From NCBI GenBank assembly GCA_039714775.1, contig JBDLIQ010000003.1:13226-77225 (forward strand): a DNA stretch of 64,000 nucleotides, written 5' to 3'. Position numbers and translations under genes: made by a program. The notes beneath the pieces are model-generated. The model saw nothing but the letters and a program-made list of their open reading frames with translations, searched no databases and had not been told where the DNA came from. Positions 34,145 to 52,504 of the stretch are shown here, in pieces (the first letter of the stretch is position 1; each line of letters starts with the position of its first letter). Source of the stretch: Bacteroidota bacterium. GTDB taxonomy: Bacteria > Bacteroidota > Bacteroidia > Bacteroidales > GCA-2748055.

Positions 34145-34203
34145 AATGTTTTTATGGTAAGTTAAACAAGGCCAATTTATTAACTTAATTATTTTCTTGT
34201 AAA

Positions 34204-35535
34204 ATGAGGATATATATTATACTCTGGATGATTGCTCTGCCGTTCATGGCAATGGCACAGGGAATTCATTTTGAGAAAGGGACCTTTGACGAGGCGCTGG
34301 GAAAAGCAAAAGCTGAAAACAAACTTCTTTTCGTGGACGGGTATGCAGTTTGGTGCAGCCCCTGCCTGGCGATGGCAAATACCGTATTCAAAGATGAAGA
34401 GGTAGGAAAATACTTTGATGAATACCTGGTTGCCATTAAAGTTGATGTAGAAAAAGGGGAGGGGCCTGCCATTTCAAAGCGATATGGAATCGTGGGCCTG
34501 CCAGGCTATGTGTTTATCGATGGGGATGGTTTGGTGGTTTACCGGTTTTCATCTTCCATGCCTGCGGCTGATTTTATGAGAGAGGTAAAGCTGGCCGTTT
34601 CGTATGCAGATGATCCAAACAGCGTGGGCCGCCTGGGTGAACGTTATAAAGTGGAAAAGAGCGATACTGCTTTGGTGAAGCTCTATCTTGATAAATTGAA
34701 GGAGAGCAAATCAACGGGTTATACCAATGTACTGGAACACTACCTGTCTGTTCAGACCACCATGGCAGATTCAAGTAAAGAGATGGTTGTATTCCTGGCA
34801 GATCATTATCGTGAAATCATACTGGGCGGGGAGGCAGAACGGATTACCCGGGATAACTATGGTTCGGACGCGTGGAAATTGTATGTCAGGAAAGATATCC
34901 GGGAAGTGTATCAGAGGCTGGAGCACGGAATTGTAGAAAACACCATCAGGTATGCGACCGAAAACAGAGATACTGTAATGCTGGAGCTCGCTCTTCAGCG
35001 TGAGGAAGAGATCAATGCCGGGAAAGGGATGAAGACCAACCCGTCACAACGCAGAAGAGTATATGCCAGATATTACCTGGAAACAAACATGGGTGAGAAG
35101 TACAAAGCCCTGGTCAGAGATGAGAATGAGGCATTCATCAATCAGCTGAATGCAGAGGAGTTGCGTTCGGGATATCTTGACTGGCAGAAAAGGAAAGCCG
35201 CAGGAGAAGAAAAAGCACAATACACAAGGCCACATTCAATAAGAACAAGCCTGCAAATTCAAAACATGGTTAAAAATTATGGCCGGTTCGTCACCACCGG
35301 GCAGGAGAAGCAAGACGTGCTTCGTTGGGCGAAGAGAGGCTATGACATTATACCGGGAGATCCGGCCATGATGAGTGTATATGCTGATCTTTTGTATCTG
35401 TTTGATAACAGGGAAGCGGGTTTAAAAGAGAAAGAGGAGGCATTTCGAATTGCTTCTGAAAGACAGTATGAGGGAAGATGGAAAATCGAACAGAACCTGG
35501 AATTAATGAGAAAAGGAGAACATATCTCATTGTGA
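34204..35535 (+). CDS. exported thioredoxin-domain protein, paralog of the preceding gene
   Basis: Signal peptide MRIYIILWMIALPFMAMAQG and motif VWCSPC. The architecture matches 32771-34144. Confidence 0.8.
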   Translation: MRIYIILWMIALPFMAMAQGIHFEKGTFDEALGKAKAENKLLFVDGYAVWCSPCLAMANTVFKDEEVGKYFDEYLVAIKVDVEKGEGPAISKRYGIVGLPGYVFIDGDGLVVYRFSSSMPAADFMREVKLAVSYADDPNSVGRLGERYKVEKSDTALVKLYLDKLKESKSTGYTNVLEHYLSVQTTMADSSKEMVVFLADHYREIILGGEAERITRDNYGSDAWKLYVRKDIREVYQRLEHGIVENTIRYATENRDTVMLELALQREEEINAGKGMKTNPSQRRRVYARYYLETNMGEKYKALVRDENEAFINQLNAEELRSGYLDWQKRKAAGEEKAQYTRPHSIRTSLQIQNMVKNYGRFVTTGQEKQDVLRWAKRGYDIIPGDPAMMSVYADLLYLFDNREAGLKEKEEAFRIASERQYEGRWKIEQNLELMRKGEHISL

Positions 35536-35549
35536 AAAAAACCGAAAAA

Positions 35550-38363: not shown

Positions 38364-38470
38364 AGTCCGGATAATAAGTGTCATACCCTTGTCACCTGCT
38401 TACTATGTTTTTTGCGTCATACTAAATAGATAGTTGTATTATTTGAACAACCTTTAATTAACTAAAAGCT

Positions 38471-41140
38471 ATGAGAAAAATTTACTTATTCCTGGTATTG
38501 CTCATTGCCGTGAGTACAGCGTCATACGGGCAATATGCCAACATGGTAATTAATGCAGCTGATTCCACGAATGGAAGCTTCATTAGTAACCTGACAAACC
38601 TGAATGGCACTTTGCTTTACAAGGCAAACGGTAAGTCTTACGGATACTGGAGCCTACGTTTTGGAAACTATGCATGGAATACAAGATGGGAGAACGAGGT
38701 CTGGATGTCTGACGGGACTGAAGCTGGAACAAGCATGATTGAGATCAACACCGCTACAGAAGAGAAACAGGATGCACTTGATTCCACCTATACAGTATAC
38801 AAAGGGGCTTCAATGAACGCTGCCTTTGTTTTTAATGATGCGTTGTATTTCAGTGCATATGATGCTACAGCAGCAGGGGGTGGTGAGTATAAAATGGATG
38901 CCAGCGGAAATTATACAAAGATTGCCGATTGGGATATGTCTTATAATCCTATCGTAGGAGATGATGGTAAGGTCTATTATTGCACTGCAGATTACAGAAA
39001 CGGGGAAGGCCGGGCCATTATTGCATGGGATGGAGTTAATGCCCCCGATACCTTGCCATATCAAAAGGAAAACTATACAACAAATGGTATTTTTTATAAG
39101 TTTGGCGATAAGTTTCTTGTTACGGCAAATCTCTTAAGCGACGATCCAGATGTTGGAACAGAGTTGGTATTATATGATCCGACCGATCCGGCAGGACCGC
39201 AAGTGTTAATGAATATTGATACACAGCCGAACAAACACGGAGTGCCAAAATCATATACTCAGGTTGGGAATAAAGTGTTTTTCAGAGCGCAGCACTACAG
39301 GCAGTATCCTGATAAGACAAAGTATTTAATCTATGAGACAGATGGTACACCTGGAGGAACACAGGAAATAACCGCCATTTCAACACTGGTGGACAGCCTC
39401 TATCTTGAGATTCTTGGTGCATGGAAAGACAAACTCTATTTTGCTGCCACCAATACTGGTGCAACGGATTTTAGTGCAAAGTACCATGCACAGATGTACC
39501 AGTATGATCCTGCTGCCGGAACAGTGGTTCAGGTATCAGACATTCTAAAGCATTACCCGATGGCTTTTGATACAGCCAAGTCTGTTCTTGACGGCTGGTT
39601 GTATTATCCCGGGAGCATGGTTCTTCCCAGCACGGATTGGAATTACAGGTACCTGTTCCGCACGGATGGATCTACTGTTGAAATAGTAGACACGGTTGCA
39701 ATGAATATCGGCGATATTGTTGTGAAGGATGGGAAAGTCTACTTCGAGGGAGAATTGCCAGGTGTTTCATTGTTAAGTGATGGGACATTGGATTACAGTG
39801 GTTATGAGTTGATGGTGTACGATCCCAACTCATTGATCTCAAATAATGCATTTCTCACGGAGTTGACAATAGCCGATACTGTTGCCACTGTTTTTCATAA
39901 ATACAATACGAAATATACCATCTATCTACCCAAGGAGACCGTGGCTTCACCTCAGGTTGGTGGTGTGGCAGAAGATGCTGTCAAAGCAAGCGTAGTGGTT
40001 ACACAGGCCTCATCCTTCCCGGGTACAGCCACTATTGTAGTTACTGCTGAGGACGGAACCAGTTCCAATACGTACACTGTTGAGTTTGCAAAGGCTCCTT
40101 CAATAATTTCCAGCTTATCAGAAATATTGATTGATGATGTGGCTCTTGAAGGGTTTGATACGGACACTCTGGAATATACCTTTGGATTACCCTATGGACA
40201 TCCAACTAATACCATTCCGAATGTAACCTGTACCCCGACCGATGCGGATGCCACCTTTGTGATTACGGATCCGACTGAATTGCCGGATACAACGGTTATT
40301 GTAGTTACTGCAGAAGATGGGATCTCACAAACAATCTATGAGGTTATTTTCGAGATCAATCCACCTTCAACTGATTCTACATTATCGGGTATTACCATAG
40401 ATGGTATGGCACTTGAAGGATTTGATGCGGCGACACTGGCATATACGGTTCATTTGCCTTATGGGCATTCTGCCAATACCATTCCAGTGGTTGTCGGTAC
40501 ACTATCGGATGCAAATGCCACAATGACTGTGACCGATCCTGCTTCAATTCCAGGTACAACTTCGGTTGTCGTTCTTGCGGAAGACGGTATAGCGGAAACA
40601 ACTTATACCATTGATTTCCAGATCATGGATCCTTCGGACGTATGCACGTTGTCAGCAATAACCATTGATGGTGAGGCGCTTGCAGGCTTTGATCCGGACC
40701 TGTTGTTCTACGATGTGAAATTACCATCCGGGCATGCATCTGATGTCATTCCGGTTGTTGTGGCTACCCAGGTTGACCCCAATTCAACAGTGAATATCAC
40801 GAATCCCGAATCAATACCGGGATCAGCCGTTATTCTGGTTACTGCAGAGGATGGTGTATCCTATACTAACTACACGATCGATTATTCAATCGCTATAGGT
40901 ATTGATCATTCGGCACAAGCTTCACCAAAGGTCTATCCAACAATGTCTGATAACCATTTCAATGTTGAGTTGGGCCAAAACGGAGGAGCTGTGAAGGTGT
41001 ATAACATGTTTGGTCAAATGGTTCTGGATAAGGAGCTTAATACATCTAATGCCCGGATTCATTTAGAGCACTCAGGCATGTATATCATGGTCATTTCAAA
41101 TGGTGTTGAGGAAGCTGTTTACAGGATAGTGAAGAGGTAA
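38471..41140 (+). CDS. T9SS-secreted surface protein with ELWxxDGT-type repeats, four cadherin-like domains and a Por C-terminal sorting domain
   Basis: Signal peptide. Motifs EVWMSDGTEAGT, LIYETDGTPGGT and YLFRTDGSTVEIV. Four domains of about 90 aa follow. The C-terminus KVYPTMSDNHFNVEL...VKVYNMFGQMV...GMYIMVISNG...YRIVKR is typical of a T9SS CTD. Confidence 0.8.
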   Translation: MRKIYLFLVLLIAVSTASYGQYANMVINAADSTNGSFISNLTNLNGTLLYKANGKSYGYWSLRFGNYAWNTRWENEVWMSDGTEAGTSMIEINTATEEKQDALDSTYTVYKGASMNAAFVFNDALYFSAYDATAAGGGEYKMDASGNYTKIADWDMSYNPIVGDDGKVYYCTADYRNGEGRAIIAWDGVNAPDTLPYQKENYTTNGIFYKFGDKFLVTANLLSDDPDVGTELVLYDPTDPAGPQVLMNIDTQPNKHGVPKSYTQVGNKVFFRAQHYRQYPDKTKYLIYETDGTPGGTQEITAISTLVDSLYLEILGAWKDKLYFAATNTGATDFSAKYHAQMYQYDPAAGTVVQVSDILKHYPMAFDTAKSVLDGWLYYPGSMVLPSTDWNYRYLFRTDGSTVEIVDTVAMNIGDIVVKDGKVYFEGELPGVSLLSDGTLDYSGYELMVYDPNSLISNNAFLTELTIADTVATVFHKYNTKYTIYLPKETVASPQVGGVAEDAVKASVVVTQASSFPGTATIVVTAEDGTSSNTYTVEFAKAPSIISSLSEILIDDVALEGFDTDTLEYTFGLPYGHPTNTIPNVTCTPTDADATFVITDPTELPDTTVIVVTAEDGISQTIYEVIFEINPPSTDSTLSGITIDGMALEGFDAATLAYTVHLPYGHSANTIPVVVGTLSDANATMTVTDPASIPGTTSVVVLAEDGIAETTYTIDFQIMDPSDVCTLSAITIDGEALAGFDPDLLFYDVKLPSGHASDVIPVVVATQVDPNSTVNITNPESIPGSAVILVTAEDGVSYTNYTIDYSIAIGIDHSAQASPKVYPTMSDNHFNVELGQNGGAVKVYNMFGQMVLDKELNTSNARIHLEHSGMYIMVISNGVEEAVYRIVKR
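39842..40900 (+). repeat. four tandem ~270-nt coding repeats (cadherin-like beta-sandwich domains)
   Basis: The protein repeats share L(S/T).I.IDG.AL.GFD...L.Y.V.LP.GH....IP.V......DANAT..(I/V)T.P.(S/E)(I/L)PG...(V/I)(V/L)V.AEDG.....Y.(I/V).F. Copies 2 to 4 are clearly related and copy 1 is divergent. Confidence 0.75.
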
Positions 41141-41167
41141 TAATTAGCAAATACTCATTTTTAAAGG

Positions 41168-41205
41168 GATCATCTGGCATTTGTCAGGTGATCTTTTTAT
41201 TTTTG
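41168..41205 (+). terminator. rho-independent terminator after the T9SS cargo gene
   Basis: GATCATCTG-GCATTTGT-CAGGTGATC forms a 9-bp stem (one G-U pair) and is followed by TTTTTATTTTT. Confidence 0.65.
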
Positions 41206-41249
41206 GGAATCATGTTCTCAGAAAGTACTTATCTGTTTTTTATAAAAAA

Positions 41250-42095
41250 ATGAAAAAATATATATTCCTGATCACGCTTAGCAGCTTCGTAATAGGTGGA
41301 ATGGCTCAGGAGACATTTCAATCACATTGTGAGTTGGGGCAGATGGAGGTGGATCGCCAGAATTACCATGGGGCCTTAAAACACTACGATAAGGCCTTAG
41401 AAGCAGGAAGCGATGATACGCTGTCAGTGATCTGGGCAGCAATGGTCTCAAGCATGTGTGCTATCCATGTGGGAGATGAGTTGCTGGCGATGAAATACAA
41501 TAACATTGCGATAGATTACGGATCTGAAGATCTATTCATGATTGATCAGCAATTGCAACTGGCCAAACAGCATCAGGACCCTGAAACCACGGAACGGGTC
41601 TTGTTGGCTGTAAAGAGCATAGAGGGTGCAGAAGAGAAGTACACCACCATGCTGCTTCGCTTCTATTATAGCAGCAAGCAATATACGGAGACCATTGAAC
41701 TGGCAGAAGAGATACTAAGCCATGATCCTGATCATATCAGTTCTATGTACTATAAAGGAATGGGATTGCTGAGGACAGGCAAGGAGGATGAGGCACTGCA
41801 GGCATTTTTTGATATCCTGAAGAGGGAGCCCGATCACGAAAAAGTGAATATGCAGGTGGGATTCATCTATTACTACAGGGCTGGAGCCCTGTATAAAAAG
41901 GTGAATGATAATTATTCAGAAATAGAGAAACCAACAAAGCAGGATTATGCCAGGTACCGTGAGGGACTTCAAAAATCAATCAAGGATTACGACACTTCTA
42001 TTCCTTACCTTGAGAAATATCATGGGAAAAGCTATCAGGAGGATGTGACTGACGCGCTGGCCAAAGCAAAAAGACGCAGTGAATATTTGAAGTAG
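41250..42095 (+). CDS. TPR-repeat protein with signal peptide
   Basis: The ATG at 41250 (MKKYIFLITLSSFVIGGMAQ) lies downstream of the terminator. TPR-like helical repeats are visible (YHGALKHYDKALEAG, EDEALQAFFDILKREPDHEK). Confidence 0.7.
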   Translation: MKKYIFLITLSSFVIGGMAQETFQSHCELGQMEVDRQNYHGALKHYDKALEAGSDDTLSVIWAAMVSSMCAIHVGDELLAMKYNNIAIDYGSEDLFMIDQQLQLAKQHQDPETTERVLLAVKSIEGAEEKYTTMLLRFYYSSKQYTETIELAEEILSHDPDHISSMYYKGMGLLRTGKEDEALQAFFDILKREPDHEKVNMQVGFIYYYRAGALYKKVNDNYSEIEKPTKQDYARYREGLQKSIKDYDTSIPYLEKYHGKSYQEDVTDALAKAKRRSEYLK

Positions 42096-42124: not shown

Positions 42125-43957
42125 ATGGAAAATGGAACCAGGATCAGACTGGCACACAGGATTACCCTTGTATCGGGGATCTTTTGTGGCGTAGTGGCAC
42201 TTCTTCTTCTGCTCAATTTCTGGCAGATGAAGCAGCATGAACCCCTTGAAAGCAAAACCATCGAGGTGCTGGTTGAGCGGCTCTCACAGGAGCCCAACAA
42301 CGAGGAGCTCAAGGAGGAGATACGCAGCTTTGACCTGCTGGCCCGCAAAGCCTATTTCACCAGTCAGTGGCAGGTGAAGACAGGAACCTGGCTTCTGCTT
42401 ATCGGAGGTGTGGTGCTGGCCGTCTCCCTGAAAATCTATACCGACCTCAGGGCACGGATCAGTCTGCCGGAGGAGACCACCGAGGAGTTATTGAGGGCAC
42501 GGGCCAATGCACAGTACTGGATCCTTCTGACCGGGGGACTTGTCCTTGGATTTGCGTTGGTGGCAGCCTGGCTGAGTAACGATTTATTAAAAGAGTATCG
42601 GGAGATGGGAGCTTCAGAGAGCGCCGTAACAGCGGATCCGGAGGTGGAGGTGATCGAGGTGTTTGCTTCTGAAGAGAAAGCAACAACCGGGGAGCCGGAG
42701 GCAGGGGAATCTGACACCTCCACCGCATCTGACAGCACCACCTCCTCTTCTGTCACCACCACCACTTCCGCCCCCGCTGCCCCTGCCACCATCCCGTTCA
42801 ACCGGGAGGATCATATGAAAAACCAGAGCTCCTTCAGGGGCTATATGGGGCTGGGTATCTCCTACCATAAAAACATTCCCGAGCAGTGGAACGGTGCTTC
42901 CGGGGAGAACATCAAGTGGAAAGTGGCCCTCTCCAAACCAGGGTACAACTCCCCGGTTATCTGGGGTGACAGACTGTTTCTTTCGGGCGGGGACCAGGCT
43001 GCCAGGATCGTGGCATGCTATAACCGCCATACGGGTCAGCTGATCTGGGAGCAGGAGGTGAAAGGGATCTCCGGATCGCCTGCATCGCCGCCAAAGGTGA
43101 CCGACGATACAGGACTGGCTGCACCCACCATGGCTGTGGACGGGAAGCGGGTCTATGCCATCTTTGGCACAGGTAATGTGGTTGCATTCAGCCTGGATGG
43201 AAAAATGGTCTGGGGACGGAACCTGGGTGTTCCGAAAAACCACTACGGACACTCGTCATCGCTTATTGTCTGGGGAAACCTGCTGGTGGTGCAGTACGAC
43301 ACCAACACAAAGGGGAGGATGCTGGCCCTCAATACAGCCACAGGGGAGAGCGTCTGGGATGTGGATCGTCCGGTGAAAATCTCATGGGCCTCTCCGGCAC
43401 TCATCGAGGTGAAGGGTAAGATCCAGGTGGTCACATCGGCCGATCCCTATGTTTCGGGTCACGACCTTGAGACCGGGGCCGAATTGTGGAAGGTGGAGGC
43501 GATGATGGGAGAGGTGGCGCCATCGATTGGTTATGAAGAGGGGCTGGTCTTTGCCACAAACGAGTATGCCCGCCTGGTGGCTGTGAAGCCTGAACCGGAT
43601 GCAGAATTCAAATGGGAGCAGGATGAATACCTGGCCGAGGTGGCAAGTCCCGTGGCCCATAACGGACTGCTCTATGTAGCCACAAGTTATGGCGTGCTGG
43701 TCTGTTATGACACAAAGAGTGGGGAGAAACAGTGGGAAAAGGAGTTTAATGAAGGGTTCTATTCATCGCCCATGATTGCCGACGGGAAGCTCTATATCAT
43801 CGATATGGGCGGGATGATGCATATCCTGAAGACAGATAAAGCGGGGACCGTTATCGCGGAGCCTGAACTGGGGGAGGCGGGATTTGCCCTGCCAGTGTTT
43901 GCCGACGGGGTGGTCTATATCCGGGGAGAGAAGAATTTGTATTGTATAGGGAAGTAG
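42125..43957 (+). CDS. polytopic-anchored PQQ-like beta-propeller, paralog 5
   Basis: Three predicted TM helices (ITLVSGIFCGVVALLLLL, WLLLIGGVVLAVSL, ILLTGGLVLGFALVAAWL). An acidic and Ser/Thr-rich linker follows (ESDTSTASDSTTSSSVTTTTSAPAAPA), then FRGYMGLG and propeller blades ending DGVVYIRGEKNLYCIG. Confidence 0.8.
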   Translation: MENGTRIRLAHRITLVSGIFCGVVALLLLLNFWQMKQHEPLESKTIEVLVERLSQEPNNEELKEEIRSFDLLARKAYFTSQWQVKTGTWLLLIGGVVLAVSLKIYTDLRARISLPEETTEELLRARANAQYWILLTGGLVLGFALVAAWLSNDLLKEYREMGASESAVTADPEVEVIEVFASEEKATTGEPEAGESDTSTASDSTTSSSVTTTTSAPAAPATIPFNREDHMKNQSSFRGYMGLGISYHKNIPEQWNGASGENIKWKVALSKPGYNSPVIWGDRLFLSGGDQAARIVACYNRHTGQLIWEQEVKGISGSPASPPKVTDDTGLAAPTMAVDGKRVYAIFGTGNVVAFSLDGKMVWGRNLGVPKNHYGHSSSLIVWGNLLVVQYDTNTKGRMLALNTATGESVWDVDRPVKISWASPALIEVKGKIQVVTSADPYVSGHDLETGAELWKVEAMMGEVAPSIGYEEGLVFATNEYARLVAVKPEPDAEFKWEQDEYLAEVASPVAHNGLLYVATSYGVLVCYDTKSGEKQWEKEFNEGFYSSPMIADGKLYIIDMGGMMHILKTDKAGTVIAEPELGEAGFALPVFADGVVYIRGEKNLYCIGK

Positions 43958-46329
43958 GGGAATTAAGGAATTGTGTAATTGAGAAATTGGAGGTTGAATT
44001 AAGAGACATAGAGGCGATTGTGGAGGAGTTCGGGACGGCGCCGCGTGCTGTGATCCCCATTCTCCAGGCCATCCAGGGACGGTATAACTACCTGCCGGAG
44101 GAGGCGTTGAGGAGGGTGTGCGAGATCACGGAGATCACCCCGGCGCAGATCACCGGCGTGGCCAGTTTCTACTCCCAGTTTCGTTTCAAACCTGCAGGCG
44201 AGCACATCATCAGGGTCTGTGTTGGAACAGCCTGTCACGTGAAGGGGGCCGAGCTGGTACACGATGCAGTGAAGCGCGAGCTTGCGCTGGATGAGACGGA
44301 AGATACCACTGCAACGGGAACATACACCATTGAAAAGGTCAACTGCCTGGGTTGTTGCACCCTGGCTCCTGTGGTGCAGATCGACCAGGTCACCTATGGT
44401 CATGTAACCACATCGCAGGTGGCATCCATTCTTTCCGATTTTGAGAGCAGGGGAGGGGAGTCGCCCGGGAAACAATACAGGTATGCCGACGGAAGTGAGG
44501 TGGAGGGTGAGATCCGGATCGGGCTCGGGTCGTGTTGTGTGGCCAGCGGAAGCGATGAGATCCGTGATGCGGTGAAAGAGACCATCGACATCAAAGGGCT
44601 CAATGTAAAGCTGAAGCATGTAGGGTGTGTGGGGATGTGCCACCAGGTACCCCTGGTGGAGATAGTTCCGGCCGATGGAGAGGCGATCCTCTACTCGAAG
44701 GTGGATGCGGCCGATGTGGATCAGATCGTTGAACAGCACTTCAGGCCGGATGGATGGTTCAGGCGGATCACCGGCAGGCTGTTGCAGGTGGCCGATACCG
44801 TAAGGGATGACAGCCGGTGGGTGGGAGTGGACCGCTACTCCCTCGATGTGAGGGAGAGGCATGTCTCCTCTTTCCTGGACAAACAGGTTCCCATGGCCAC
44901 CGAATTCAGGGGAGTCATCAATCCGGTGGACCTGGAGGAGTACAAAGCGCGGAATGGATTCAGGGGGCTTGCCAGGGTACTGAAGAAGATGACCCCGGAT
45001 GAGCTGGTATCCGAGATTGCGGAGAGCGGCATGCGTGGAAGGGGAGGTGCCGGATTTCCTACCGGTGAGAAATGGCGAATGGTTGCCGAAGCCGAAAGTG
45101 AAACGAAATACATCATTTGCAACGGTGATGAGGGGGATCCGGGGGCATTTATGGACCGTATGTTGCTGGAGTCATACCCCTACCGGATCATCGAAGGGAT
45201 CATCGCCGCCGGATATGCCGTGGGGGCCCGCGAGGGGATCCTCTACATCAGGGCAGAGTATCCCCTGGCGGTAGGAAGGATTCAACAGGCCCTGGAGAGA
45301 TGCCGTGAAGAGGGTCTTCTTGGCGAAGGAATCATGGGAACGTCGTTTAGTTTTGACCTCTCAGTCTACCAGGGAGCCGGTGCTTTTGTTTGCGGTGAAG
45401 AGACCGCCCTGATGGAGTCGATCGAAGGAGCGCGCGGATTCCCCAGGGTTCGTCCCCCATTCCCTGCAGTGAAGGGGTTGTGGGGCTATCCCACCCTGAT
45501 AAACAATACCGAGACATTTGCACAGATCGCCTATATTCTCAAGAACGGGGCTGCAGCATTTAACCGCATCGGAAAAGGTGCCTCCCAGGGAACCAAGGTG
45601 TTTGCACTGGCGGGGAAGGTGGCCCGTGGCGGACTGATCGAGGTGCCCATGGGGATGACCATCAGGGAGGTGGTGGAGGAGATTGGTGGCGGGGTGGCCG
45701 GTGACCGCTCTTTTAAGGCGGTTCAGATCGGCGGACCCTCCGGTGGATGTGTCCCTTCGTGGGAATCGGATACCCCCATCGATTTTGAGTCCCTGAACAA
45801 GGTGGGAGCCATGATGGGTTCCGGGGGACTGGTGGTGCTGGATGACAGCGACTGCATGGTGGATATCGCCAGGTACTTCCTTACGTTTACCCAGAACGAA
45901 GCGTGTGGGAAATGCAGTTTCGGGCGCATCGGCACCAAACGGATGCTTGAGATCCTTGAGAAGATCACCACCGGAAAGGGAACAGCAGAAGATCTTGAGA
46001 AGCTGGAGCAGCTGGCAGAGTGGACCCGGAAGGGCAGCCTATGCGGCTTGTGCCGTACCGCACCCAATCCTGTTCTCTCTACCCTGAAGTACTTCAGGGA
46101 TGAGTATGAGGCCCACATCAGGGGAGAGTGCCCGGCAGGGCGGTGCAAGGAGCTGATCCGTTATGAGATCACCGACGACTGCATCGGCTGTACACTCTGT
46201 GCACAGGAGTGCCCCGTGGAGGCCATTGCATTCAGGCCCCACGAAAAGCACGAGGTGGACAGTGAATTGTGTATAGCGTGCGATGGCTGCAGGCAGGTTT
46301 GTCCGGAAAATGCAGTAATTGTAAAGTAG
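43942..46329 (+). CDS. fused NuoE-like / NuoF-like NAD(H)-binding Fe-S flavoprotein (HydB/HndC/StnAB-type)
   Basis: NuoE [2Fe-2S] motifs CVGTACH...CLGCC and a second thioredoxin-like [2Fe-2S] domain (GSCCVASG...CVGMCH). NuoF FMN/NADH site GRGGAGFPTGEKW, an N3-type cluster (CGKCSFGR...SLCGLC) and two C-terminal ferredoxin motifs (CIGCTLCAQECP, CIACDGCRQVCP). There is no in-frame ATG near the 5' end. The start must be TTG at 43942 (overlapping the propeller gene by 16 nt) or TTG at 43987. Confidence 0.85.
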   Translation: MYREVGELRNCVIEKLEVELRDIEAIVEEFGTAPRAVIPILQAIQGRYNYLPEEALRRVCEITEITPAQITGVASFYSQFRFKPAGEHIIRVCVGTACHVKGAELVHDAVKRELALDETEDTTATGTYTIEKVNCLGCCTLAPVVQIDQVTYGHVTTSQVASILSDFESRGGESPGKQYRYADGSEVEGEIRIGLGSCCVASGSDEIRDAVKETIDIKGLNVKLKHVGCVGMCHQVPLVEIVPADGEAILYSKVDAADVDQIVEQHFRPDGWFRRITGRLLQVADTVRDDSRWVGVDRYSLDVRERHVSSFLDKQVPMATEFRGVINPVDLEEYKARNGFRGLARVLKKMTPDELVSEIAESGMRGRGGAGFPTGEKWRMVAEAESETKYIICNGDEGDPGAFMDRMLLESYPYRIIEGIIAAGYAVGAREGILYIRAEYPLAVGRIQQALERCREEGLLGEGIMGTSFSFDLSVYQGAGAFVCGEETALMESIEGARGFPRVRPPFPAVKGLWGYPTLINNTETFAQIAYILKNGAAAFNRIGKGASQGTKVFALAGKVARGGLIEVPMGMTIREVVEEIGGGVAGDRSFKAVQIGGPSGGCVPSWESDTPIDFESLNKVGAMMGSGGLVVLDDSDCMVDIARYFLTFTQNEACGKCSFGRIGTKRMLEILEKITTGKGTAEDLEKLEQLAEWTRKGSLCGLCRTAPNPVLSTLKYFRDEYEAHIRGECPAGRCKELIRYEITDDCIGCTLCAQECPVEAIAFRPHEKHEVDSELCIACDGCRQVCPENAVIVK

Positions 46330-46348
46330 TGAAGTCGAAAGTTACAGG

Positions 46349-47902
46349 ATGGTAAAACTGAAGATCGATAACAGGGAGGTTGAGGCAAAGAGGGGTGCCG
46401 TGCTGATGGCAACCATCCGGGGGATGGGTGTGGAGGTTCCCTCTATGTGCTACCTGGAGGGTGAACCCCACCTTGCCTCCTGTATGGTCTGTGTGGTGAA
46501 GGATAATAAAACAGGAAAGCTGATCCCCTCCTGCTCATTTGAGGTAGAAGAGGGAATGGATATTATTAGCGGGGATGAGGAGGTGATGGAGGCCCGCAGA
46601 ATGGCCCTGGAGCTGCTGTTGAGCGAACATGTTGGTGATTGCGAAGCACCGTGCCAGGTGAGCTGTCCGGCCCACATGAACATCCCGCTGATGAACCGGC
46701 TGCTGGCGAAAGGTGCATTTGATGAGGCCCTGCGGGTGGTGAAACGGGACATTGCCCTGCCCTCGGTACTTGGCAGGATCTGTCCCGCACCCTGCGAGGG
46801 GGCATGCCGGAGAAAGTCCATCGATGAGCCGGTCTCCATCTGCCTGCTGAAACGATTTGCCGGCGATACCGACCTCTTCAGCGAACAACCCTGGATGCCA
46901 CCAATGGAAAAAGCGACCGGTAAAAAGGTGGCGGTGATCGGGGCTGGACCCGGGGGACTGGCGGCAGCGTGGCACCTGGCCCTGAAGGGGCACCGGGTTA
47001 CGGTGACCGACCGCAACGAAAAGGCCGGGGGCAGTCTGCTGAAGGAGGTGCCTGAGGCGGAACTTCCGCCAGAGGTGCTGGAGCGTGAGCTTGATCTGAT
47101 CCGAAAGGCGGGTGTGAAATTTCAGCTTGGTGAGGCGGTGGATGCAGCAAAGTTCAGAGAGATATCAAAAGCGAGCGACGCTGTGGTTGTGGCGGTAGGA
47201 AAAGGAGAGAGCGGCATCGAAACCTGGGGAGTTCCCATGCACGACAAAGGGGTGGAAGCGGATCGCTCCACCTACCGGGTGGGGGAGACCACTCTTTTTG
47301 TAGTGGGCAGTGCACTGAGGCCCTCCCGCATGGCCATCCGGGCACTTGGACAGGGCAAGGAGGTGGCCTTCAGCGTGGACCAGTTTCTAAGCGGTGAACC
47401 GGTTACAGGCGAAAAGTTCAGGTTCAACTCCAGGTTCGGAAAGCTGGTTCAGGAGGAGTATGGTGAGTACCTGAAGGAGTCAAAACCGGGAGCCCGCCTG
47501 GAGCCTGAGATACCGGCGAAAGGATTAACAGAGGCGCAGGTGATGGAGGAGGCTGCCCGCTGTCTGCACTGCGACTGCCGCGATCTGGATAACTGCAAGC
47601 TTCGCCTCCACGCTGATGCGTACAATGCCCAACAGAGAAGGTTTAAACCTGAGGAGCGGGCCATCTGCCGGAAGATCGACCAGCACGAGCTTGTGATCTA
47701 CGAACCCTCCAAATGCATCAGGTGCGGCATCTGCATCAGGGTCGCCGAAAAATACAGGGAGGAGATAGGCCTCACCTTTATCGGCAGGGGATTTGAGATG
47801 GTGGTGGAGGTCCCCTTCAACGAACCCATAAGCAACGGCCTCAAAAAAGCGGCGGCCGAGGTGGCTCAGGCGTGCCCCACAGGAGCCATTAGCCGAAAAT
47901 AA
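46349..47902 (+). CDS. Fe-S flavoprotein with NuoG/HydA-N-terminal-like [2Fe-2S] and Fe-S domains fused to a GltD-like FAD/NAD(P)H oxidoreductase (StnC/NfnB-like)
   Basis: N-terminus MVKLKIDNREVEA...CYLEGEPHLASCMVCVV, then HVGDCEAPCQVSCP. GltD-type segment RICPAPCEGACRR and dinucleotide fold KKVAVIGAGPGGLAAAWHLA. C-terminal Cys clusters CLHCDC and CIRCGICIRV...CPTGAI. No [FeFe]-hydrogenase H-cluster motifs. Confidence 0.8.
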   Translation: MVKLKIDNREVEAKRGAVLMATIRGMGVEVPSMCYLEGEPHLASCMVCVVKDNKTGKLIPSCSFEVEEGMDIISGDEEVMEARRMALELLLSEHVGDCEAPCQVSCPAHMNIPLMNRLLAKGAFDEALRVVKRDIALPSVLGRICPAPCEGACRRKSIDEPVSICLLKRFAGDTDLFSEQPWMPPMEKATGKKVAVIGAGPGGLAAAWHLALKGHRVTVTDRNEKAGGSLLKEVPEAELPPEVLERELDLIRKAGVKFQLGEAVDAAKFREISKASDAVVVAVGKGESGIETWGVPMHDKGVEADRSTYRVGETTLFVVGSALRPSRMAIRALGQGKEVAFSVDQFLSGEPVTGEKFRFNSRFGKLVQEEYGEYLKESKPGARLEPEIPAKGLTEAQVMEEAARCLHCDCRDLDNCKLRLHADAYNAQQRRFKPEERAICRKIDQHELVIYEPSKCIRCGICIRVAEKYREEIGLTFIGRGFEMVVEVPFNEPISNGLKKAAAEVAQACPTGAISRK

Positions 47903-47998
47903 AATATCGGAATTTTATTCCTAAGTTGTAGGTCATTTGAAGCAACGGCAGGATAATGAGCAAAACTGTTGATTTTTGGAATTGTATTGATCTTAATC

Positions 47999-49243
47999 AT
48001 GAACAAAATGAATGATGCGACATCTGCTAATTATATGAGGATTGTCATATTGAGTTTATATTTAGCCACCCTGTTAATTGGCTGTACACATAAAAATCCG
48101 GAAACCTTAAAGGTAAAGGCAGTACCTGTTTACGGGAAAGTAAACGGCAACATTCTTTCAGGCTCCTCAGTTTTGAATGATCCTGACCGGTTTGTTTGGG
48201 GTGGCAGTGTAATTCAAGGGTCCGATAACAGATACCACATGCTTTATGCTACCTGGGAGTGCGGCGATTCAATTCCGGAGTTTTCAACCTCATGGCTGTT
48301 GCATTCTAAAATTGCTTATGCTGTTTCTGATTATCCTGACAGAGATTTTAAATTCCAAAAAATTGTTTTGCGAGGAAGATCTTTAGAAGGGGACTCAACA
48401 GCATGGGATGCTCAAACGGTTCATAATCCCCACATTAAACAGTTTGACAACAAGTATTACTTGTACTATGTTGGAGCAAAAGATCCAGGTGTTCAGCCAG
48501 TTGGTTCAAAAGGAGAGCAGGTCAACAGACGTAACAGGGTTCAACAGAGTCAATGCATTGGTGTTGTTGTATTCAACAGTTTTGAAGAGTTGCTGAATGG
48601 GAACTTCAGAAGATCAGAGGCTCCTGTTCTGGTACCAGGAACAAGGGTAAAACCGGATCATATTGTAAAGCCCTCACCTGAAGGAACAGAACCCAGGCCT
48701 GACAACATCATTGTAGTTAATCCTTCAGTTGTCCAGCGTCATTCGGATGGAAAATACCTGTTATACTTCAAGGGGAACTTTTACAATCCCGGATGGAGAG
48801 GAGTACACGGGGTTGCCATAGCTGACTCACCAGAAGGGCCATTTACGGCAACAGATCATTTTGTATTTGATATACGTCATGAAGATGGAAAAATAGCCAG
48901 TGGTGAAGATCCTTATGTCTGGTATCATCACGCACATGAAAAATACTATGTAGTGCTCAAGGATTTCACAGGAAGAATAACAGGAGAAGAAGCCGGATTG
49001 GCCCTGCTGGAATCTCTGGATGGAATCAGGTGGACAAAACCTGACAACCCTCTCTTTATGAAAAAAGAGGTTGTTCTTCACAGCGGAGATACCATCATGG
49101 TGAAACGACTGGAACGCCCCCAGATCCTAAGTGATGAGAATGGTAATCCAAAAGTTTTATATTGTGCGTGTGCATTGGTTGATATTAATACCCGTAAAGA
49201 CGGGGTTTCATTTAATGTTCAGATTCCACTAAGATTGGAATGA
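47999..49243 (+). CDS. GH43/GH117-like five-bladed beta-propeller glycosidase-like lipoprotein
   Basis: Lipobox LATLLIGC. Blade-like motifs WDAQTVHNPHIKQFDNKYYLYYVG, VVNPSVVQRHSDGKYLLYFKG, GEDPYVWYHHAHEKYYVVLKD and ERPQILSDENGNPKVLY. The family assignment is from memory only. Confidence 0.55.
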   Translation: MNKMNDATSANYMRIVILSLYLATLLIGCTHKNPETLKVKAVPVYGKVNGNILSGSSVLNDPDRFVWGGSVIQGSDNRYHMLYATWECGDSIPEFSTSWLLHSKIAYAVSDYPDRDFKFQKIVLRGRSLEGDSTAWDAQTVHNPHIKQFDNKYYLYYVGAKDPGVQPVGSKGEQVNRRNRVQQSQCIGVVVFNSFEELLNGNFRRSEAPVLVPGTRVKPDHIVKPSPEGTEPRPDNIIVVNPSVVQRHSDGKYLLYFKGNFYNPGWRGVHGVAIADSPEGPFTATDHFVFDIRHEDGKIASGEDPYVWYHHAHEKYYVVLKDFTGRITGEEAGLALLESLDGIRWTKPDNPLFMKKEVVLHSGDTIMVKRLERPQILSDENGNPKVLYCACALVDINTRKDGVSFNVQIPLRLE

Positions 49244-49292
49244 AAGTTGTTAAAGGGTTACAGACTACAGAATGTTGCATAGAGATCTTCGC

Positions 49293-50426
49293 ATGAGATT
49301 AAAAACCTCCTGGTTCCTGTTGTTGCTGGTCTCTGGTGGACTACTCCTATCGGGATCGTTGGTTCGGGCACAGACAGACGGATGCTGGGGGAACGCCAGG
49401 GGGGATGCGCAGTTGACCGGTGTGAGCCGTTCCGCTCTGCCGGGCCAGTTGGAACTGCTCTGGAGCTTTAAGACCGGCGACGGGATCAAGGCGGCCCCGG
49501 TGGTCTGCAACGGGGTGATCGTGGTGGGTACGGTAAGCGGTAAACTGTATGGTATCAACAGCGACGGGACCCTCAAATGGAAGATCATCTCAGAAAACGG
49601 CATCGAGGCACCTGCCCTTATTGTGGAGGATGTGGTCTATGCCGGGAACCTGGATGGTACCCTCTATGCCATCGACCTTGAGAGCGGGAATGTCCGTTGG
49701 ACCTACAGGACAGAGGGTCAGATTATGGGAGCCCCCACCTTTTACAGATCCGGCAACAGGCAGGTTCTGATGGTGGGCAGTTATGATTACTACCTGCATG
49801 GGATCGATCCCAAAACCGGCAGGGGATTATGGAAATATGAGACCTGGAATTACATCAACGGGACCTGTGCAATCTACGACGGGAAAGCGGTTTTCGGGGG
49901 GTGTGACGGTTTTATCCACATGGTGGATGCCCTGAGCGGAAGCGCAGTGGCAAGCCTGGAGATCTCCACCTATGTGGCCAGTTCGGGCTGCATAGACGGC
50001 AATCATGCCTATGTGGGGGACTACGACGGGCGGTTTTCGGCGGTTAACCTGGAGGCACAGGAGGTGAGCTGGCAGTTTGAAAACAGCGAGGCCCACCTCC
50101 CCTTCATCGGATCACCTGCTATCATAGGAAGTCGCGTATACATAGGGAACAGGGACAAACAGATGTACTGTCTTGATAAAGAGGATGGATCGCTGGTGTG
50201 GAGATACAACACAGGGAGCCGGGTCGATGCCTCCCCGGTAATTGTGGGGGACAACGTGCTGACTGCCAACATGAGGGGTGATCTCTTCCTGCTGGATAGC
50301 AAATCTGGCAAACCCGCCTGGAGCTATGAGCTTGGGAGCCCTATTCATGCCAATCCGGCAGTGGCCGGGGGGCGCATCTATGTGGCCGCAGATGACGGCA
50401 GGGTTTACTGTTTTGGGAACAAATAG
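49293..50426 (+). CDS. BamB/PQQ-like beta-propeller, paralog 6 (exported)
   Basis: ATG at 49293 gives MRLKTSWFLLLLVSGGLLLSGSLVRAQ. It has WGNARGDAQLTG and very regular blades (G.LY(A/G)I(D/N)...G...W). Confidence 0.85.
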   Translation: MRLKTSWFLLLLVSGGLLLSGSLVRAQTDGCWGNARGDAQLTGVSRSALPGQLELLWSFKTGDGIKAAPVVCNGVIVVGTVSGKLYGINSDGTLKWKIISENGIEAPALIVEDVVYAGNLDGTLYAIDLESGNVRWTYRTEGQIMGAPTFYRSGNRQVLMVGSYDYYLHGIDPKTGRGLWKYETWNYINGTCAIYDGKAVFGGCDGFIHMVDALSGSAVASLEISTYVASSGCIDGNHAYVGDYDGRFSAVNLEAQEVSWQFENSEAHLPFIGSPAIIGSRVYIGNRDKQMYCLDKEDGSLVWRYNTGSRVDASPVIVGDNVLTANMRGDLFLLDSKSGKPAWSYELGSPIHANPAVAGGRIYVAADDGRVYCFGNK

Positions 50427-50454: not shown

Positions 50455-51807
50455 ATGAAAATAATGCACATCATACCCGGATCGGGGGGAAGTTTTTACT
50501 GCGGCAATTGTCTGCGGGACTCGAAATATGTGGAGGCCCTTCGAAAGTCGGACCACCAGGTGGTGAAATTGCCCATGTACCTGCCGCTGTTTGCCGATGA
50601 GCACGACCTGACACGGGAGATCCCTGTCTTTTACGGGGCCATCAGCATCTACCTGAAACAACGCTTCCCGCTTTTCAGAAGGGCACCGGGATGGGTCGAC
50701 CGGGCCCTCAACTCAAAGCCGATGCTGAAGCTGGCCTCAAAATTCGCGGGTTCTACCCGTGCCAAAGGGTTGGAGGAGATGACCGTCTCCATGCTCCTGG
50801 GTGAAGAGGGACAACAGGGCGAAGAGCTTGAGAAGATGGTGGATTGGATCGTCGACAACTGCAATCCCGATGTGATCCACCTCTCCAACGCACTGCTGCT
50901 GGGGCTGGCCCGGCAGCTCTCCACCCGCCTGAATGTACCGGTGATCTGTTCCCTCCAGGACGAAGATGTATGGGTGGATGTGATGAAACCATCGGCCAGG
51001 GAGAGCGTCTGGAAGCTGATGTCAAAAAAGGCAGCAGATGTGAGTTCCTTCATACCGGTAAGTGATTATTATGCGGATGTGATGAGGGAGAAGATGGAGA
51101 TCCCCCCGGGGAAGATGGAGAAGGTACACATTGGTGTTGATCCGGCCGATTACAGCTTCAGTCCGGTTTCCAAAAAGGGTCGGAACATCGGGTTCGTCTC
51201 CCGCATGTGTCACGGAAACGGCCTTGATATCCTGGTGGATGCATTTATCATGATCAGGCAAAAACCGGAATTTGATGATGTCCGGCTGGTGCTTACAGGA
51301 GGCTCTACAGGCGATGACCGGAAATTCCTGCATGATATGAAGAGAGAGATCAGGGAGCACGGACTGCAGGAGCAGGTGGAGTTTCACGAGGAGTTTGAGG
51401 AGGAGGGGCTGAGGGAGTTCCTGGAGAAGGTCTCCATGGTGTCGGTCCCGGTCAGGAACGGAGAGGCATTCGGGATCTACCTGCTGGAGTGCATGGTATC
51501 GGGGGTGCCGGTGGTGCAGCCTGCACTGGGTGCATTCCCGGAGATTATCGGGCTAACCGGCGGGGGTGTGGTGTATGACTCCAACACCCCGGAGCAGCTG
51601 GCCCAATCGCTGGAGAAGCTGTTATCAGACCCTGTCTTGCTGGAGCGTCTGAGCTGGAAGGGTGCCAGGGGGGTGGAGGAACATTTTCACATTGATATGC
51701 AGGCCAAACAGATGGTTGAGGTGTATGAAGAGGCCATCCGGAAGGCGGAGCATGCCCAACAGGACCCAACCGGGCCTATCTCCAAAACTAACCCACCATC
51801 TCACTAA
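50455..51807 (+). CDS. GT4-family (GT-B fold) glycosyltransferase
   Basis: MKIMHIIPGSGGSFYCGNC..., with the C-terminal donor-binding motif VPVRNGEAFGIYLLECMVSGVPVV (E-x7-E-like). Confidence 0.8.
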   Translation: MKIMHIIPGSGGSFYCGNCLRDSKYVEALRKSDHQVVKLPMYLPLFADEHDLTREIPVFYGAISIYLKQRFPLFRRAPGWVDRALNSKPMLKLASKFAGSTRAKGLEEMTVSMLLGEEGQQGEELEKMVDWIVDNCNPDVIHLSNALLLGLARQLSTRLNVPVICSLQDEDVWVDVMKPSARESVWKLMSKKAADVSSFIPVSDYYADVMREKMEIPPGKMEKVHIGVDPADYSFSPVSKKGRNIGFVSRMCHGNGLDILVDAFIMIRQKPEFDDVRLVLTGGSTGDDRKFLHDMKREIREHGLQEQVEFHEEFEEEGLREFLEKVSMVSVPVRNGEAFGIYLLECMVSGVPVVQPALGAFPEIIGLTGGGVVYDSNTPEQLAQSLEKLLSDPVLLERLSWKGARGVEEHFHIDMQAKQMVEVYEEAIRKAEHAQQDPTGPISKTNPPSH

Positions 51808-51826
51808 CCTTCTAACTCACTGTCAT

Positions 51827-52504
51827 ATGCTTCTGTCGCTGAAGAACATCACCAAAGGATTCGGAAATCCCGGGGAGCTCTCCCACCGGAAGGTGCTGGA
51901 GGATCTTTCACTGGATGTGGAACAGGGGGAAAGCATCGCCATCCTGGGACCGTCGGGTTCGGGAAAGACCACACTGTTGAATGTTATCGGGGGACTGGAC
52001 CATCCCGACCGGGGATCGGTGCGTTTTATGGGAGAGGAGATCTCCGCATTTTCCACCTCTGCAATGGACCGATACAGGAACAGGGAGATCGGGTTTGTCT
52101 TTCAGTTCCACCACCTGCTTCCACAATGCACGCTGCTTGAAAATGTCCTGATCCCCACACTGGTGAATCCAAAGGCCGGTGAGGGAAGCAATGAGCGTGC
52201 CGAAGGGTTGATGAAGCGGGTGGGGATCTGGGAGTACCGGGACAAACTGCCAGGGAAGGTGTCGGGAGGAGAGTGCCAGCGTGCCGCCGTGGTGAGGGCC
52301 ATGATCAATGCACCCTCCCTGCTGCTGGCCGATGAACCCACCGGGGCACTCGACAGGGAGAATGTGGAGACCATGGCCGATCTGCTGCTGGAGCTGAACC
52401 GGGAGGATGGATTGACACTTCTGATGGTTACCCACTCCACCGTCCTGGCAAAACGGATGGGAAGGACCCTTGAGCTGACAGGTGGGAACCTTCGTGAAAT
52501 CTGA
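51827..52504 (+). CDS. ABC transporter ATP-binding protein (LolD/MacB/YbbA family)
   Basis: ATG at 51827. Walker A GPSGSGKTT, Q-loop FVFQ, signature VSGGECQR, Walker B LLLADEPTGALD and H-loop VTHS. Confidence 0.9.
   Translation: MLLSLKNITKGFGNPGELSHRKVLEDLSLDVEQGESIAILGPSGSGKTTLLNVIGGLDHPDRGSVRFMGEEISAFSTSAMDRYRNREIGFVFQFHHLLPQCTLLENVLIPTLVNPKAGEGSNERAEGLMKRVGIWEYRDKLPGKVSGGECQRAAVVRAMINAPSLLLADEPTGALDRENVETMADLLLELNREDGLTLLMVTHSTVLAKRMGRTLELTGGNLREI

Follow-up and report, generated by a model that had tools for sequence, protein, structure and literature searches.

A conserved gene cluster encoding a Bfu-type flavoprotein without an NADP(H)-binding subdomain together with exported propellers: a candidate trans-envelope redox system

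RESULTS

The DNA analyzed here is a 64,000-nucleotide stretch of a Bacteroidota (Bacteroidales) contig (JBDLIQ010000003.1, positions 13,226 to 77,225, forward strand; assembly GCA_039714775.1), which we call the window. At 42125 to 47902 it carries three consecutive genes that encode a β-propeller protein anchored by three transmembrane (TM) helices, a fusion of NuoE- and NuoF-like domains (BfuC-BfuB), and an iron-sulfur (Fe-S) flavoprotein resembling BfuA, that is, the parts of a Bfu-type, flavin-based electron-bifurcating enzyme placed next to an apparently exported propeller. An original prediction, made from the sequence of the window, had pointed out this pairing. We found that the BfuA-like protein has no NADP(H)-binding subdomain, and that the three genes belong to a cluster conserved in several phyla.

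The BfuA-like gene follows the stop codon of the NuoEF fusion after a gap of 19 nt. Its product showed Fer2_4, Fer4_20 (1.6e-18), and Fer4_Nqo3 matches as well as a Rossmann motif for flavin adenine dinucleotide (FAD), and its nearest sequence matches, 9bov_A (2.4e-92), 8oh5_C, and 9n5u_A, all BfuA subunits of NfnABC/StnABC, were also the top Foldseek matches of its structural model. The alignment to 9bov_A falls into two blocks, with query residues 1 to 296 matching 3 to 296 and residues 271 to 514 matching 421 to 671, and leaves residues ~297 to 420 of 9bov_A (~125 aa), which form the NADP(H)-binding Rossmann subdomain, without a counterpart. The Pyr_redox_2 match covers profile positions 1 to 73 of 291 only, and the protein has 517 aa versus 657 for PRK12814. 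The Fdh/NuoG-like C-terminal domain (~500 aa; NfnA and StnC have 950 to 1,180 aa) is likewise missing, as the BfuA-like protein stops at about residue 671 of 9bov_A. It keeps the [2Fe-2S] N-terminal domain, both [4Fe-4S] clusters of the GltD type, the part that would bind FAD, and another two clusters near the C terminus. These retained parts match the wire of NfnA to the BfuBC core, which runs FAD-A7-A6-A3-A2-A1 (PMC11829005).

Species-representative genomes were scanned with the BfuA-like protein, which yielded 168 relatives, and about 165 related loci were compared in all; the distant metagenome loci are 38 to 49% identical to their query. In addition, an exhaustive search clustered at 50% identity gave a representative set of 151 sequences, i.e., the window plus the top 150 cluster representatives. 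The deleted form of ~520 aa was found in 142 of these 151 sequences, and all of the 84 orthologs compared (84/84) were 513 to 582 aa long. The Cys ligands and the GxGxxG motif are invariant in 167 sequences. In the NfnL/GltD-like FAD domain (A6/A7), the Cys residues and GxGxxG are kept, and the predicted local distance difference test score (pLDDT) is 85 to 97 over residues 180 to 350; its GD reads GS, and GIPxFR is lost. Judged from these motifs, the BfuA-like protein probably binds FAD. The names of its relatives in databases are generic ("FAD-dependent oxidoreductase," "(2Fe-2S)-binding protein," or "glutamate synthase beta subunit-like").

The original prediction had seen NuoG/HydA-type N-terminal Fe-S domains joined to a GltD-like FAD/NAD(P)H domain in this protein; the Fe-S and FAD parts stand, whereas the NAD(P)H subdomain is absent. 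Similarly, its assignment of the module to the Bfu/HydABC type agrees with our matches, the nearest solved relatives being NfnABC/StnABC, but its equation with the Sporomusa-type Nfn does not hold, since no ortholog has the NADP(H) subdomain or the Fdh-like domain. It was right in noting the absence of an H-cluster and a formate dehydrogenase domain: Pfam found neither these nor a molybdopterin domain in the proteins of the three genes. Nor did the two flavoproteins show a hydrophobic segment.

The upstream partner is encoded by a long open reading frame (ORF), 43942 to 46329, with NuoE-like 2Fe-2S_thioredx, Complex1_51K, and NADH_4Fe-4S domains and a C-terminal 2x[4Fe-4S] domain. The fusion had been recognized in the original prediction, as had the lack of an in-frame ATG for hundreds of codons, and the first internal Met indeed lies at about residue 232. 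However, TTG 43942, which would overlap the propeller gene by 16 nt, is not the only upstream start, as had been claimed; TTG 43987 and GTG 44020 are also in frame. Translation most likely starts at TTG 43987, because this codon (codon 16 of the window ORF) coincides with the consensus Met in an alignment of 65 orthologs and yields the commonest ortholog length (2,343 nt, 43987 to 46329); this would leave a 29-nt gap after the propeller stop codon in place of the 16-nt overlap. In 60 loci, the two genes lie −1 to 286 nt apart, plus five loci with a distance of 0.7 to 1.2 kb. The conserved feature is the tight linkage of the TM-propeller and NuoEF genes, not an overlap, and we rejected translational coupling through an overlap on account of the start at 43987 and the variable spacing. 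No terminator- or promoter-like site was found at 43900 to 44000 in a scan of positions 41000 to 50600, which used a sigma-70 consensus that may not suit Bacteroidota.

The best Protein Data Bank match of the fusion is NfnB (9n5u_B; 2.8e-207), aligned over 6 to 593 of its 602 residues, and StnB (8oh5_B) is comparably strong. The site for flavin mononucleotide (FMN) and NAD(H) in BfuB is present (Complex1_51K, 1.7e-43), and its GRGGAGFPTG and NGDEGDPGAFMDR motifs are conserved in the 65 orthologs. So is the C1 [2Fe-2S] site of BfuC, here fused to BfuB (2Fe-2S_thioredx, 6e-52; Cys 93/98/135/139 invariant; residue numbers follow the 795-aa ORF from TTG 43942). The extra metal sites of BfuB, namely, the thioredoxin-like B5, B2, and the C-terminal B3/B4, which are what sets a bifurcating BfuB apart from a plain NuoF (PMC9304861), are represented by invariant Cys 198/199/229/233, 730/735, 747 to 757, and 777 to 787. 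By its motifs and Cys ligands, the BfuBC core is intact, and the sequence features of the Bfu family are all there.

The NuoF-type C-x2-C-x2-C motif shows an exchange of Cys ligands. In the clade of the window it reads CGKCSFG...LCxLC, with the third Cys (residue 661; 45922 to 45924) replaced by Gly and a Gly 43 residues downstream (residue 704; 46051 to 46053) replaced by Cys, versus CGKCTFC...LCGLG elsewhere. The covariation at this pair is perfect (59 sequences with C/G and 6 with G/C). The exchange looks like a compensatory ligand swap that preserves the cluster, which argues that this [4Fe-4S] cluster of the BfuBC core is maintained by selection.

The first of the three genes encodes the 3-TM propeller. 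Its predicted architecture of three TM helices, an acidic Ser/Thr-rich linker, and a propeller was borne out by hydrophobicity, Pfam, and AlphaFold2: hydrophobic segments lie at residues 13 to 31, 84 to 102, and 133 to 151, the linker at about 160 to 222 after TM3, and a PQQ_2-type propeller follows. The AlphaFold2 model (mean pLDDT, 64; propeller part, 75 to 90) has three long N-terminal helices, a disordered linker, and eight four-stranded blades. Three TM segments are present in 58/61 Bacteroidota-type and 30/32 distant orthologs, and in these orthologs the N-terminus has a net charge of +2.1 and the first 40 aa past TM3 one of −6.2. The predicted topology is N-in, C-out with a periplasmic propeller domain, which is favored because the N-terminus is positive, the stretch after TM3 is negative, and the three TM segments are kept. 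In Foldseek, BamB was nearest (E, ~3e-20), and tetrathionate hydrolase (6l8a), which has no cofactor, came lower (~7e-16). On the other hand, the BamB model TIGR03300 gave 89.4 bits against a cutoff of 285.2, and the protein has three TM helices in the place of a lipobox; the quinoprotein dehydrogenase model TIGR03075 gave 48 bits against 480, and PF01011 covers one repeat only. We therefore rejected both BamB orthology and a pyrroloquinoline quinone (PQQ) dehydrogenase identity for the propeller, the model scores being far under the cutoffs.

The neighborhood of these genes is a cluster of 12 to 15 genes conserved in Bacteroidota, Planctomycetota, and Poribacteria (Table 1). The typical order is anchored propeller, NHL-repeat protein, four-Cys Tat-type protein (Tat, twin-arginine translocation), Tat-exported polyferredoxin, NapH-like protein, 3-TM propeller, NuoEF fusion, and BfuA without the NADP domain, and this ordered core is accompanied by further propellers, a GT4 glycosyltransferase, and an ATP-binding cassette (ABC) transporter with a LolD-like ATPase and a duplicated FtsX permease. 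The coupling of propeller and flavoproteins, which had been suspected of being meaningful, is no accident, as their adjacency recurs in genome and distant metagenome loci from three phyla.

TABLE 1 Recurrence of gene associations around the BfuA-like gene (denominators vary by row)
Association	Genome loci	Distant metagenome loci
NuoEF directly upstream of BfuA-like gene	60/69	46/47
3-TM propeller within 5 kb	58/62	29/32
Core (NHL, NapG-like, NapH-like, TM-propeller, NuoEF)	50/56	22/26
prop4TM within 10 kb upstream of BfuA-like gene	45/56	24/26
Propeller 5 downstream of BfuA-like gene	61/63	

Planctomycetota and Poribacteria make up the largest distant group. This gene set is also found in the annotated neighborhoods of a Phycisphaerales chromosome, a Brocadiia metagenome-assembled genome (MAG), a further Planctomycetota chromosome, and a contig from Poribacteria; most of these four also have the GT4, ABC, and FtsX genes, sometimes in a different order. 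The carriers among the best 80 genome loci are Bacteroidales MAGs, Prolixibacteraceae, and Saprospirales MAGs, and include the cultured Mariniphaga sediminis, Maribellus luteus, Maribellus sp. CM-23, and Gaoshiqia sediminis; Draconibacterium orientale was met as a MAG only. As exceptions, four Bacteroidota loci have heme biosynthesis genes, not NuoEF, upstream of the BfuA-like gene. Several lineages carry small inserts (ThuA, a GDSL lipase, a 23S-IVP protein, or NDH-2). Clustering of the leftover ORFs revealed no missed catalytic subunit, only these lineage-specific inserts and a recurrent FMN_red gene in Planctomycete-type loci, and no cytochrome, molybdopterin, hydrogenase, or other recognizable catalytic subunit recurs in the cluster. 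There were no nap genes in the window or the loci, and hence no association with a periplasmic nitrate reductase.

The features of the window are listed in Table 2. The block at 10.4 to 18.9 kb, an operon that the original prediction had cited together with the three genes, is directly upstream of them in relatives. In three contigs with propeller homologs at ~70% identity to the window (L001 to L003 in our numbering of related loci), the genes of this block abut the 3-TM propeller upstream, and the NuoEF, BfuA-like, propeller, GT4, ABC ATPase, and duplicated FtsX genes follow downstream. The NapH-like gene directly precedes the TM-propeller, without an insertion, in these contigs and in 53/60 genome loci. 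The block and the three genes are thus one cluster, which in the window is split by an insertion of lower GC content (0.41 to 0.47, versus 0.54 to 0.575 in the cluster). The insertion contains genes for an ECF sigma factor, FecR, SusC/SusD, three thioredoxin/AhpC-like proteins, two M16 peptidases, an 889-aa repeat protein, and a TPR protein. A second, GH43-like insert between the BfuA-like gene and propeller 5 is absent from L001 to L003.

TABLE 2 Features of the window
Feature	Coordinates	Strand	Evidence and remarks
Propeller lipoprotein 1	10399..11790	+	PQQ_2 3.5e-27; lipobox LILTGC; probable start is the Met before the signal peptide
Propeller lipoprotein 2	11807..13114	+	PQQ_2; lipobox LLVGC
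Propeller lipoprotein 3	13158..14420	+	PQQ_2; lipobox SLFGC
Signal-anchored propeller (prop4TM)	14417..15847	+	PQQ_2; one N-terminal hydrophobic segment; core member
Signal-anchored NHL-repeat protein	15858..16823	+	Pfam NHL; G-x-G-C-C-N-P at residues ~240-246
Small Tat-type four-Cys protein	16801..17034	+	RRxF, hydrophobic stretch, C-x6-C-x2-C-x5/6-C-x-LPxA
Tat-exported polyferredoxin, NapG-like	17031..17612	+	193 aa; twin-arginine and Cys motifs
NapH-like integral-membrane polyferredoxin	17533..18909	+	Fer4_5 1e-12; probable start ~17611
~23-kb lower-GC insertion, not part of the system	18926..42095		Splits the cluster between NapH-like and 3-TM propeller genes
3-TM-anchored eight-bladed propeller	42125..43957	+	610 aa; PQQ_2-type Pfam 1.7e-30, TM prediction, AlphaFold2, Foldseek
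BfuC(NuoE)-BfuB(NuoF/HydB) fusion	43987..46329	+	780 aa from TTG 43987; longest ORF from 43942; ortholog alignment, Protein Data Bank matches
BfuA-like subunit	46349..47902	+	517 aa; Pfam, two-block alignment to 9bov_A, Foldseek
GH43-like ORF, second local insertion, not part of the system	47969..49243	+	Weak Glyco_hydro_43 match; GC 0.47
Secreted propeller 5	49272..50426	+	PQQ_2/Beta-prop_ACSF4, Pfam 7e-66; signal peptide; conserved GGCD(G)
GT4 glycosyltransferase	50455..51807	+	Pfam; N-terminal YCGNC motif conserved
LolD-like ABC ATPase	51662..52504	+	NCBIfam LolD 7.2e-72, under its cutoff; probable start ~51800; synteny
Duplicated FtsX/MacB-type permease	52526..55798	+	1,090 aa; Pfam FtsX, MacB_PCD

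The upstream block encodes the putative electron carriers. The NapG-like protein has a twin-arginine pair and 16 to 17 Cys that are invariant in 84 orthologs, and we read it as a polyferredoxin that is exported via Tat and holds up to four [4Fe-4S] clusters; NCBIfam gave weak, generic ferredoxin matches only. The NapH-like protein has two CX3CP motifs, a 2x CxxCxxCxxxCP domain split by a TM hairpin, and conserved Cys also in predicted periplasmic loops, and it does not belong to the NapH/MauN family by the NCBIfam model (36.8 bits versus a cutoff of 213). In sequence searches of the Protein Data Bank, the NapG-like, NapH-like, and NHL proteins gave generic ferredoxin, NuoI, and NHL matches only. 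All 76 NHL orthologs compared, which come from several phyla, have the GCCNP motif without change. In 59/84 loci from different phyla, an ORF of the four-Cys type (60 to 80 aa) is placed between the genes for the NHL and NapG-like proteins, and the small four-Cys protein itself had no family match. Every propeller carries an export signal, be it a lipobox, a signal peptide, or a signal anchor, and three are lipoproteins.

Downstream, the GT4 gene is syntenic in Bacteroidota and linked in Planctomycetota and Poribacteria, and the FtsX permease gene of distant loci lies either downstream of GT4-ABC or upstream of prop4TM. The N-terminal PGxGGxxYCGNCxRD sequence of GT4 is conserved in 81 sequences, and we know of no such motif in GT4 enzymes. 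NCBIfam searches with 15 cluster proteins produced generic matches below the cutoff and no system-level model, and Rfam detected no riboswitch or other RNA family at the gathering score in the whole window. We found no description of the cluster in the open-access literature, the supplement of the Bfu paper, NCBIfam, or Rfam, although absence from open-access sources is not proof.

Some side observations concern the surroundings of the BfuA-like gene. A match of the representative search, P0274 (867 aa), consists of a BfuA-like part without the NADP domain, a hydrophobic helix, and a propeller-5-like domain; such a fusion is topologically feasible (cytoplasmic domain, TM helix, periplasmic propeller) and may be a Rosetta-stone link or a lost stop codon. 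Heme biosynthesis/URO-D-like genes stand beside the BfuA-like gene in L069 (1419 to 9336) and L086 (13773 to 14792), and P0256 is a BfuA-like protein fused to a URO-D-like domain; either may be a coincidence. In Planctomycete-type clusters, an FMN_red (PF03358) gene lies divergently beside the BfuA-like gene (L084, 11585 to 12307, minus strand; L128, 2188 to 3138, minus strand; and seven other metagenome loci).

Others concern the flanks and the base composition. A divergent gene at 9509 to 10171 (minus strand) encodes a 220-aa protein with a helix-turn-helix-like segment at its C terminus and no Pfam match; an 81%-identical copy is found at the same place by the cluster in L001 to L003, and it may be a regulator. 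A 17-pair terminator-like hairpin with a T-run, the strongest of its kind in 41 to 50.6 kb, lies at 41162 to 41199 between the genes for the 889-aa and TPR proteins. The GC content of the conserved cluster (10.4 to 18.9, 42.1 to 47.9, and 50.4 to 58 kb) is ~0.54 to 0.575 versus ~0.42 to 0.50 in its neighbors, which, with the presence of the cluster in several phyla, hints at horizontal transfer.

DISCUSSION

Bfu enzymes feed a variable third substrate via BfuA, and membrane-bound forms have been predicted (PMC9304861). In the enzyme described here, the third partner would be the membrane/periplasmic part of the cluster, not a pyridine nucleotide. The three genes can then be read as the center of one conserved multi-phylum cluster that forms a trans-envelope redox system, a reading to which we give a little less than an even chance. 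NADH, probably together with reduced ferredoxin, would be oxidized at the cytoplasmic BfuBC core, and electrons would leave through the Fe-S chain and the exposed FAD of BfuA, not to NADP+. They would pass to the cytoplasmic clusters of the NapH-like protein, across the membrane, and on to the Tat-exported polyferredoxin, ending at a periplasmic site built of the propeller and NHL proteins. As terminal sites, the Cys-Cys pair that is invariant in the NHL protein and the Cys that is conserved in propeller 5 are candidates. The 3-TM propeller would tie the periplasmic assembly to the membrane complex. If we were to guess at the terminal chemistry, it would be of the thiol/disulfide or sulfane-sulfur kind. 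A redox role of the periplasmic proteins fits better than a BamB-like one, because the operon encodes both Tat-exported and NapH-like polyferredoxins. More tentatively, the system might constitute a novel class, in which an NADH/ferredoxin-confurcating Bfu core without an NADP site is wired across the inner membrane by Fe-S proteins only, with no cytochromes, to a periplasmic catalytic site. Propeller and NHL proteins poor in cofactors would make up this site, a vicinal Cys-Cys being one candidate for its center, and a dedicated Lol/MacB-type exporter and a glycosyltransferase would assemble the system. It would be widespread in Bacteroidota, Planctomycetota, and Poribacteria, and no earlier Bfu enzyme would have its third substrate in the periplasm.

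Several points weigh against the trans-envelope reading. Where the FAD motif has the Asp of "GD," the window has Ser, and the family as a whole does not conserve this Asp. The propellers have no recognizable redox cofactor site, and BamB is their closest resemblance. The protein contacts, cofactors, and activity proposed here, and likewise the direction of electron flow, are predictions from sequence. To our knowledge, the way electrons cross the membrane in NapH-type proteins is not settled even for NapGH. The cluster also tolerates splitting, between the NapH-like and TM-propeller genes in the window and between NuoEF and BfuA in L056, L068, L069, and L078. Finally, it occurs in MAGs labeled Lewinellaceae/Phaeodactylibacter, an aerobic group, which would be unexpected for a ferredoxin-dependent enzyme if these organisms are aerobes.

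One alternative is a stand-alone Stn/Nfn-type transhydrogenase that merely happens to sit beside BamB-like scaffold genes. NfnABC/StnABC are indeed the best sequence and fold matches, but the window and 142 of the 151 sequences in the representative set lack the NADP(H)-binding subdomain, and the synteny with membrane/periplasmic Fe-S proteins and propellers persists to ~40% identity and across phyla; we regard this explanation as very improbable and, with both the NADP(H)-binding subdomain and the Fdh-like domain missing, rejected it. The module could also be coupled to the quinone pool. It would then be a membrane-associated NADH/ferredoxin:menaquinone reductase whose exposed FAD serves as the quinone site (cf. 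ETF-QO/EtfC), and the NapH/NapG-like pair would be a quinol dehydrogenase that feeds the periplasmic proteins. NapGH counts as a quinol dehydrogenase, both CX3CP motifs are retained in the NapH-like protein, and without the NADPH subdomain the flavin would be exposed. There is also a published prediction of a quinone-linked Bfu (Nuo-Bfu), EtfABCX is reported to bifurcate NADH to quinone and ferredoxin, and the cluster survives a split between its modules. However, the flavoproteins have no identifiable quinone-binding element, membrane anchor, or hydrophobic segment, the cross-phylum linkage of a dedicated quinone reductase to the other genes is hard to explain, and the NapH-like score is far under the NapH cutoff; we regard quinone coupling as unlikely.

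That GT4, the LolD-like ATPase, and the duplicated FtsX permease are linked to the cluster in every phylum examined, that three propellers are lipoproteins, and that the propeller fold is nearest to BamB would all suit a system primarily for envelope biogenesis or export (propeller lipoproteins, Lol/MacB-type ABC transporter, and GT4). Its redox module would serve maturation or regulation, e.g., by reducing Cys pairs or loading clusters into exported proteins, rather than act as a catabolic electron sink. A seven-protein Fe-S/flavin chain with a full Bfu core would be a large outlay for maturation, though, and a Tat-exported polyferredoxin suggests sustained electron flow; we find this explanation rather improbable. 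Electrons might instead flow inward: the periplasmic propellers would oxidize a low-potential substrate, whose electrons the Bfu module would bifurcate between NAD+ and ferredoxin. Bfu enzymes can run in either direction, and in Nfn or hydrogenases the donor is the third substrate. However, it is hard to think of a periplasmic donor near −400 mV apart from H2 or formate, the proteins contain neither a hydrogenase nor a formate dehydrogenase domain, and the carriers are, by their organism labels, taken to be mainly heterotrophs; inward flow has a slim chance at best.

Bfu-type enzymes are central to anaerobic energy metabolism, and the third substrate defines the role of each. The subfamily without the NADP site accounts for over 140 of the 150 best clusters (50% identity) and is nearly always encoded with membrane or Tat-exported Fe-S proteins and exported propellers. 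From these sequences, the cluster appears to encode a new form of Bfu enzyme, and there is a substantial chance that the assembly as a whole represents an envelope redox machine of a new kind. If the trans-envelope reading is true, electron bifurcation/confurcation would extend to periplasmic chemistry, and a large number of "BamB-like/PQQ-like" proteins, from organisms described chiefly from sediments and sponges, would gain a function. The system would also be a cytochrome-free route for the export of reducing power. The cultured carriers (Maribellus, Mariniphaga, and Gaoshiqia) make the question directly testable. For annotation, names of Nfn or glutamate synthase subunits are unsuitable for the NuoEF and BfuA-like genes.

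With NfnABC/StnABC (9bov, 9n5u, and 8oh5), the NADH-dependent ferredoxin:NADP+ oxidoreductase of the Bfu family, the cluster shares BfuB from end to end (E, ~1e-207), including the FMN/NADH site, the N-terminal thioredoxin-like site, and the 2x[4Fe-4S] domain, the NuoE-like [2Fe-2S] protein, and, in BfuA, the [2Fe-2S] domain, an NfnL/GltD-like domain with two [4Fe-4S] clusters that probably binds FAD, and two further clusters. It differs in that the NADP(H) subdomain (~125 aa) and the Fdh/NuoG-like domain of ~500 aa are absent, BfuC and BfuB are fused, and the genes are set among those for membrane and periplasmic proteins. NapGH (and NosGH or MauMN), in which an exported and a membrane polyferredoxin serve periplasmic enzymes, resembles the polyferredoxin pair in the Tat signal with about four [4Fe-4S] motifs and in the membrane protein, which combines Fer4_5 and two CX3CP motifs with 2x[4Fe-4S] motifs predicted to face the cytoplasm. 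However, the scores here are far under the cutoffs, the NapH-like protein additionally has a periplasmic segment at its N terminus and a TM hairpin within its ferredoxin domain, and no nap, nos, or mau genes are near this cluster.

The propellers share the fold and PQQ_2 with the eight-bladed propellers of the BamB/PQQ_2 type and with tetrathionate hydrolase (6l8a), whereas in the 3-TM propeller a TM anchor and an acidic linker take the place of the lipid anchor of BamB, and the context is one of redox proteins, not of the β-barrel assembly machinery (BAM). The Uet cluster for extracellular electron uptake (PMC10734462) consists of multiheme cytochromes and a porin, unlike the present cluster with no recognizable cytochrome, and offers an analogy only, in that NHL-repeat proteins (UetHI) lie inside a cluster for envelope electron transfer. 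The predicted Nuo-Bfu and Mbh-Bfu complexes (Schut et al. 2022, PMC9304861) contain proton-pumping modules of the complex I/Mbh type, where this cluster has NapH/NapG-like proteins and propellers without Nuo/Mbh membrane subunits; in their BfuBC core that feeds or drains a membrane complex, they are the nearest concept to the system proposed here.

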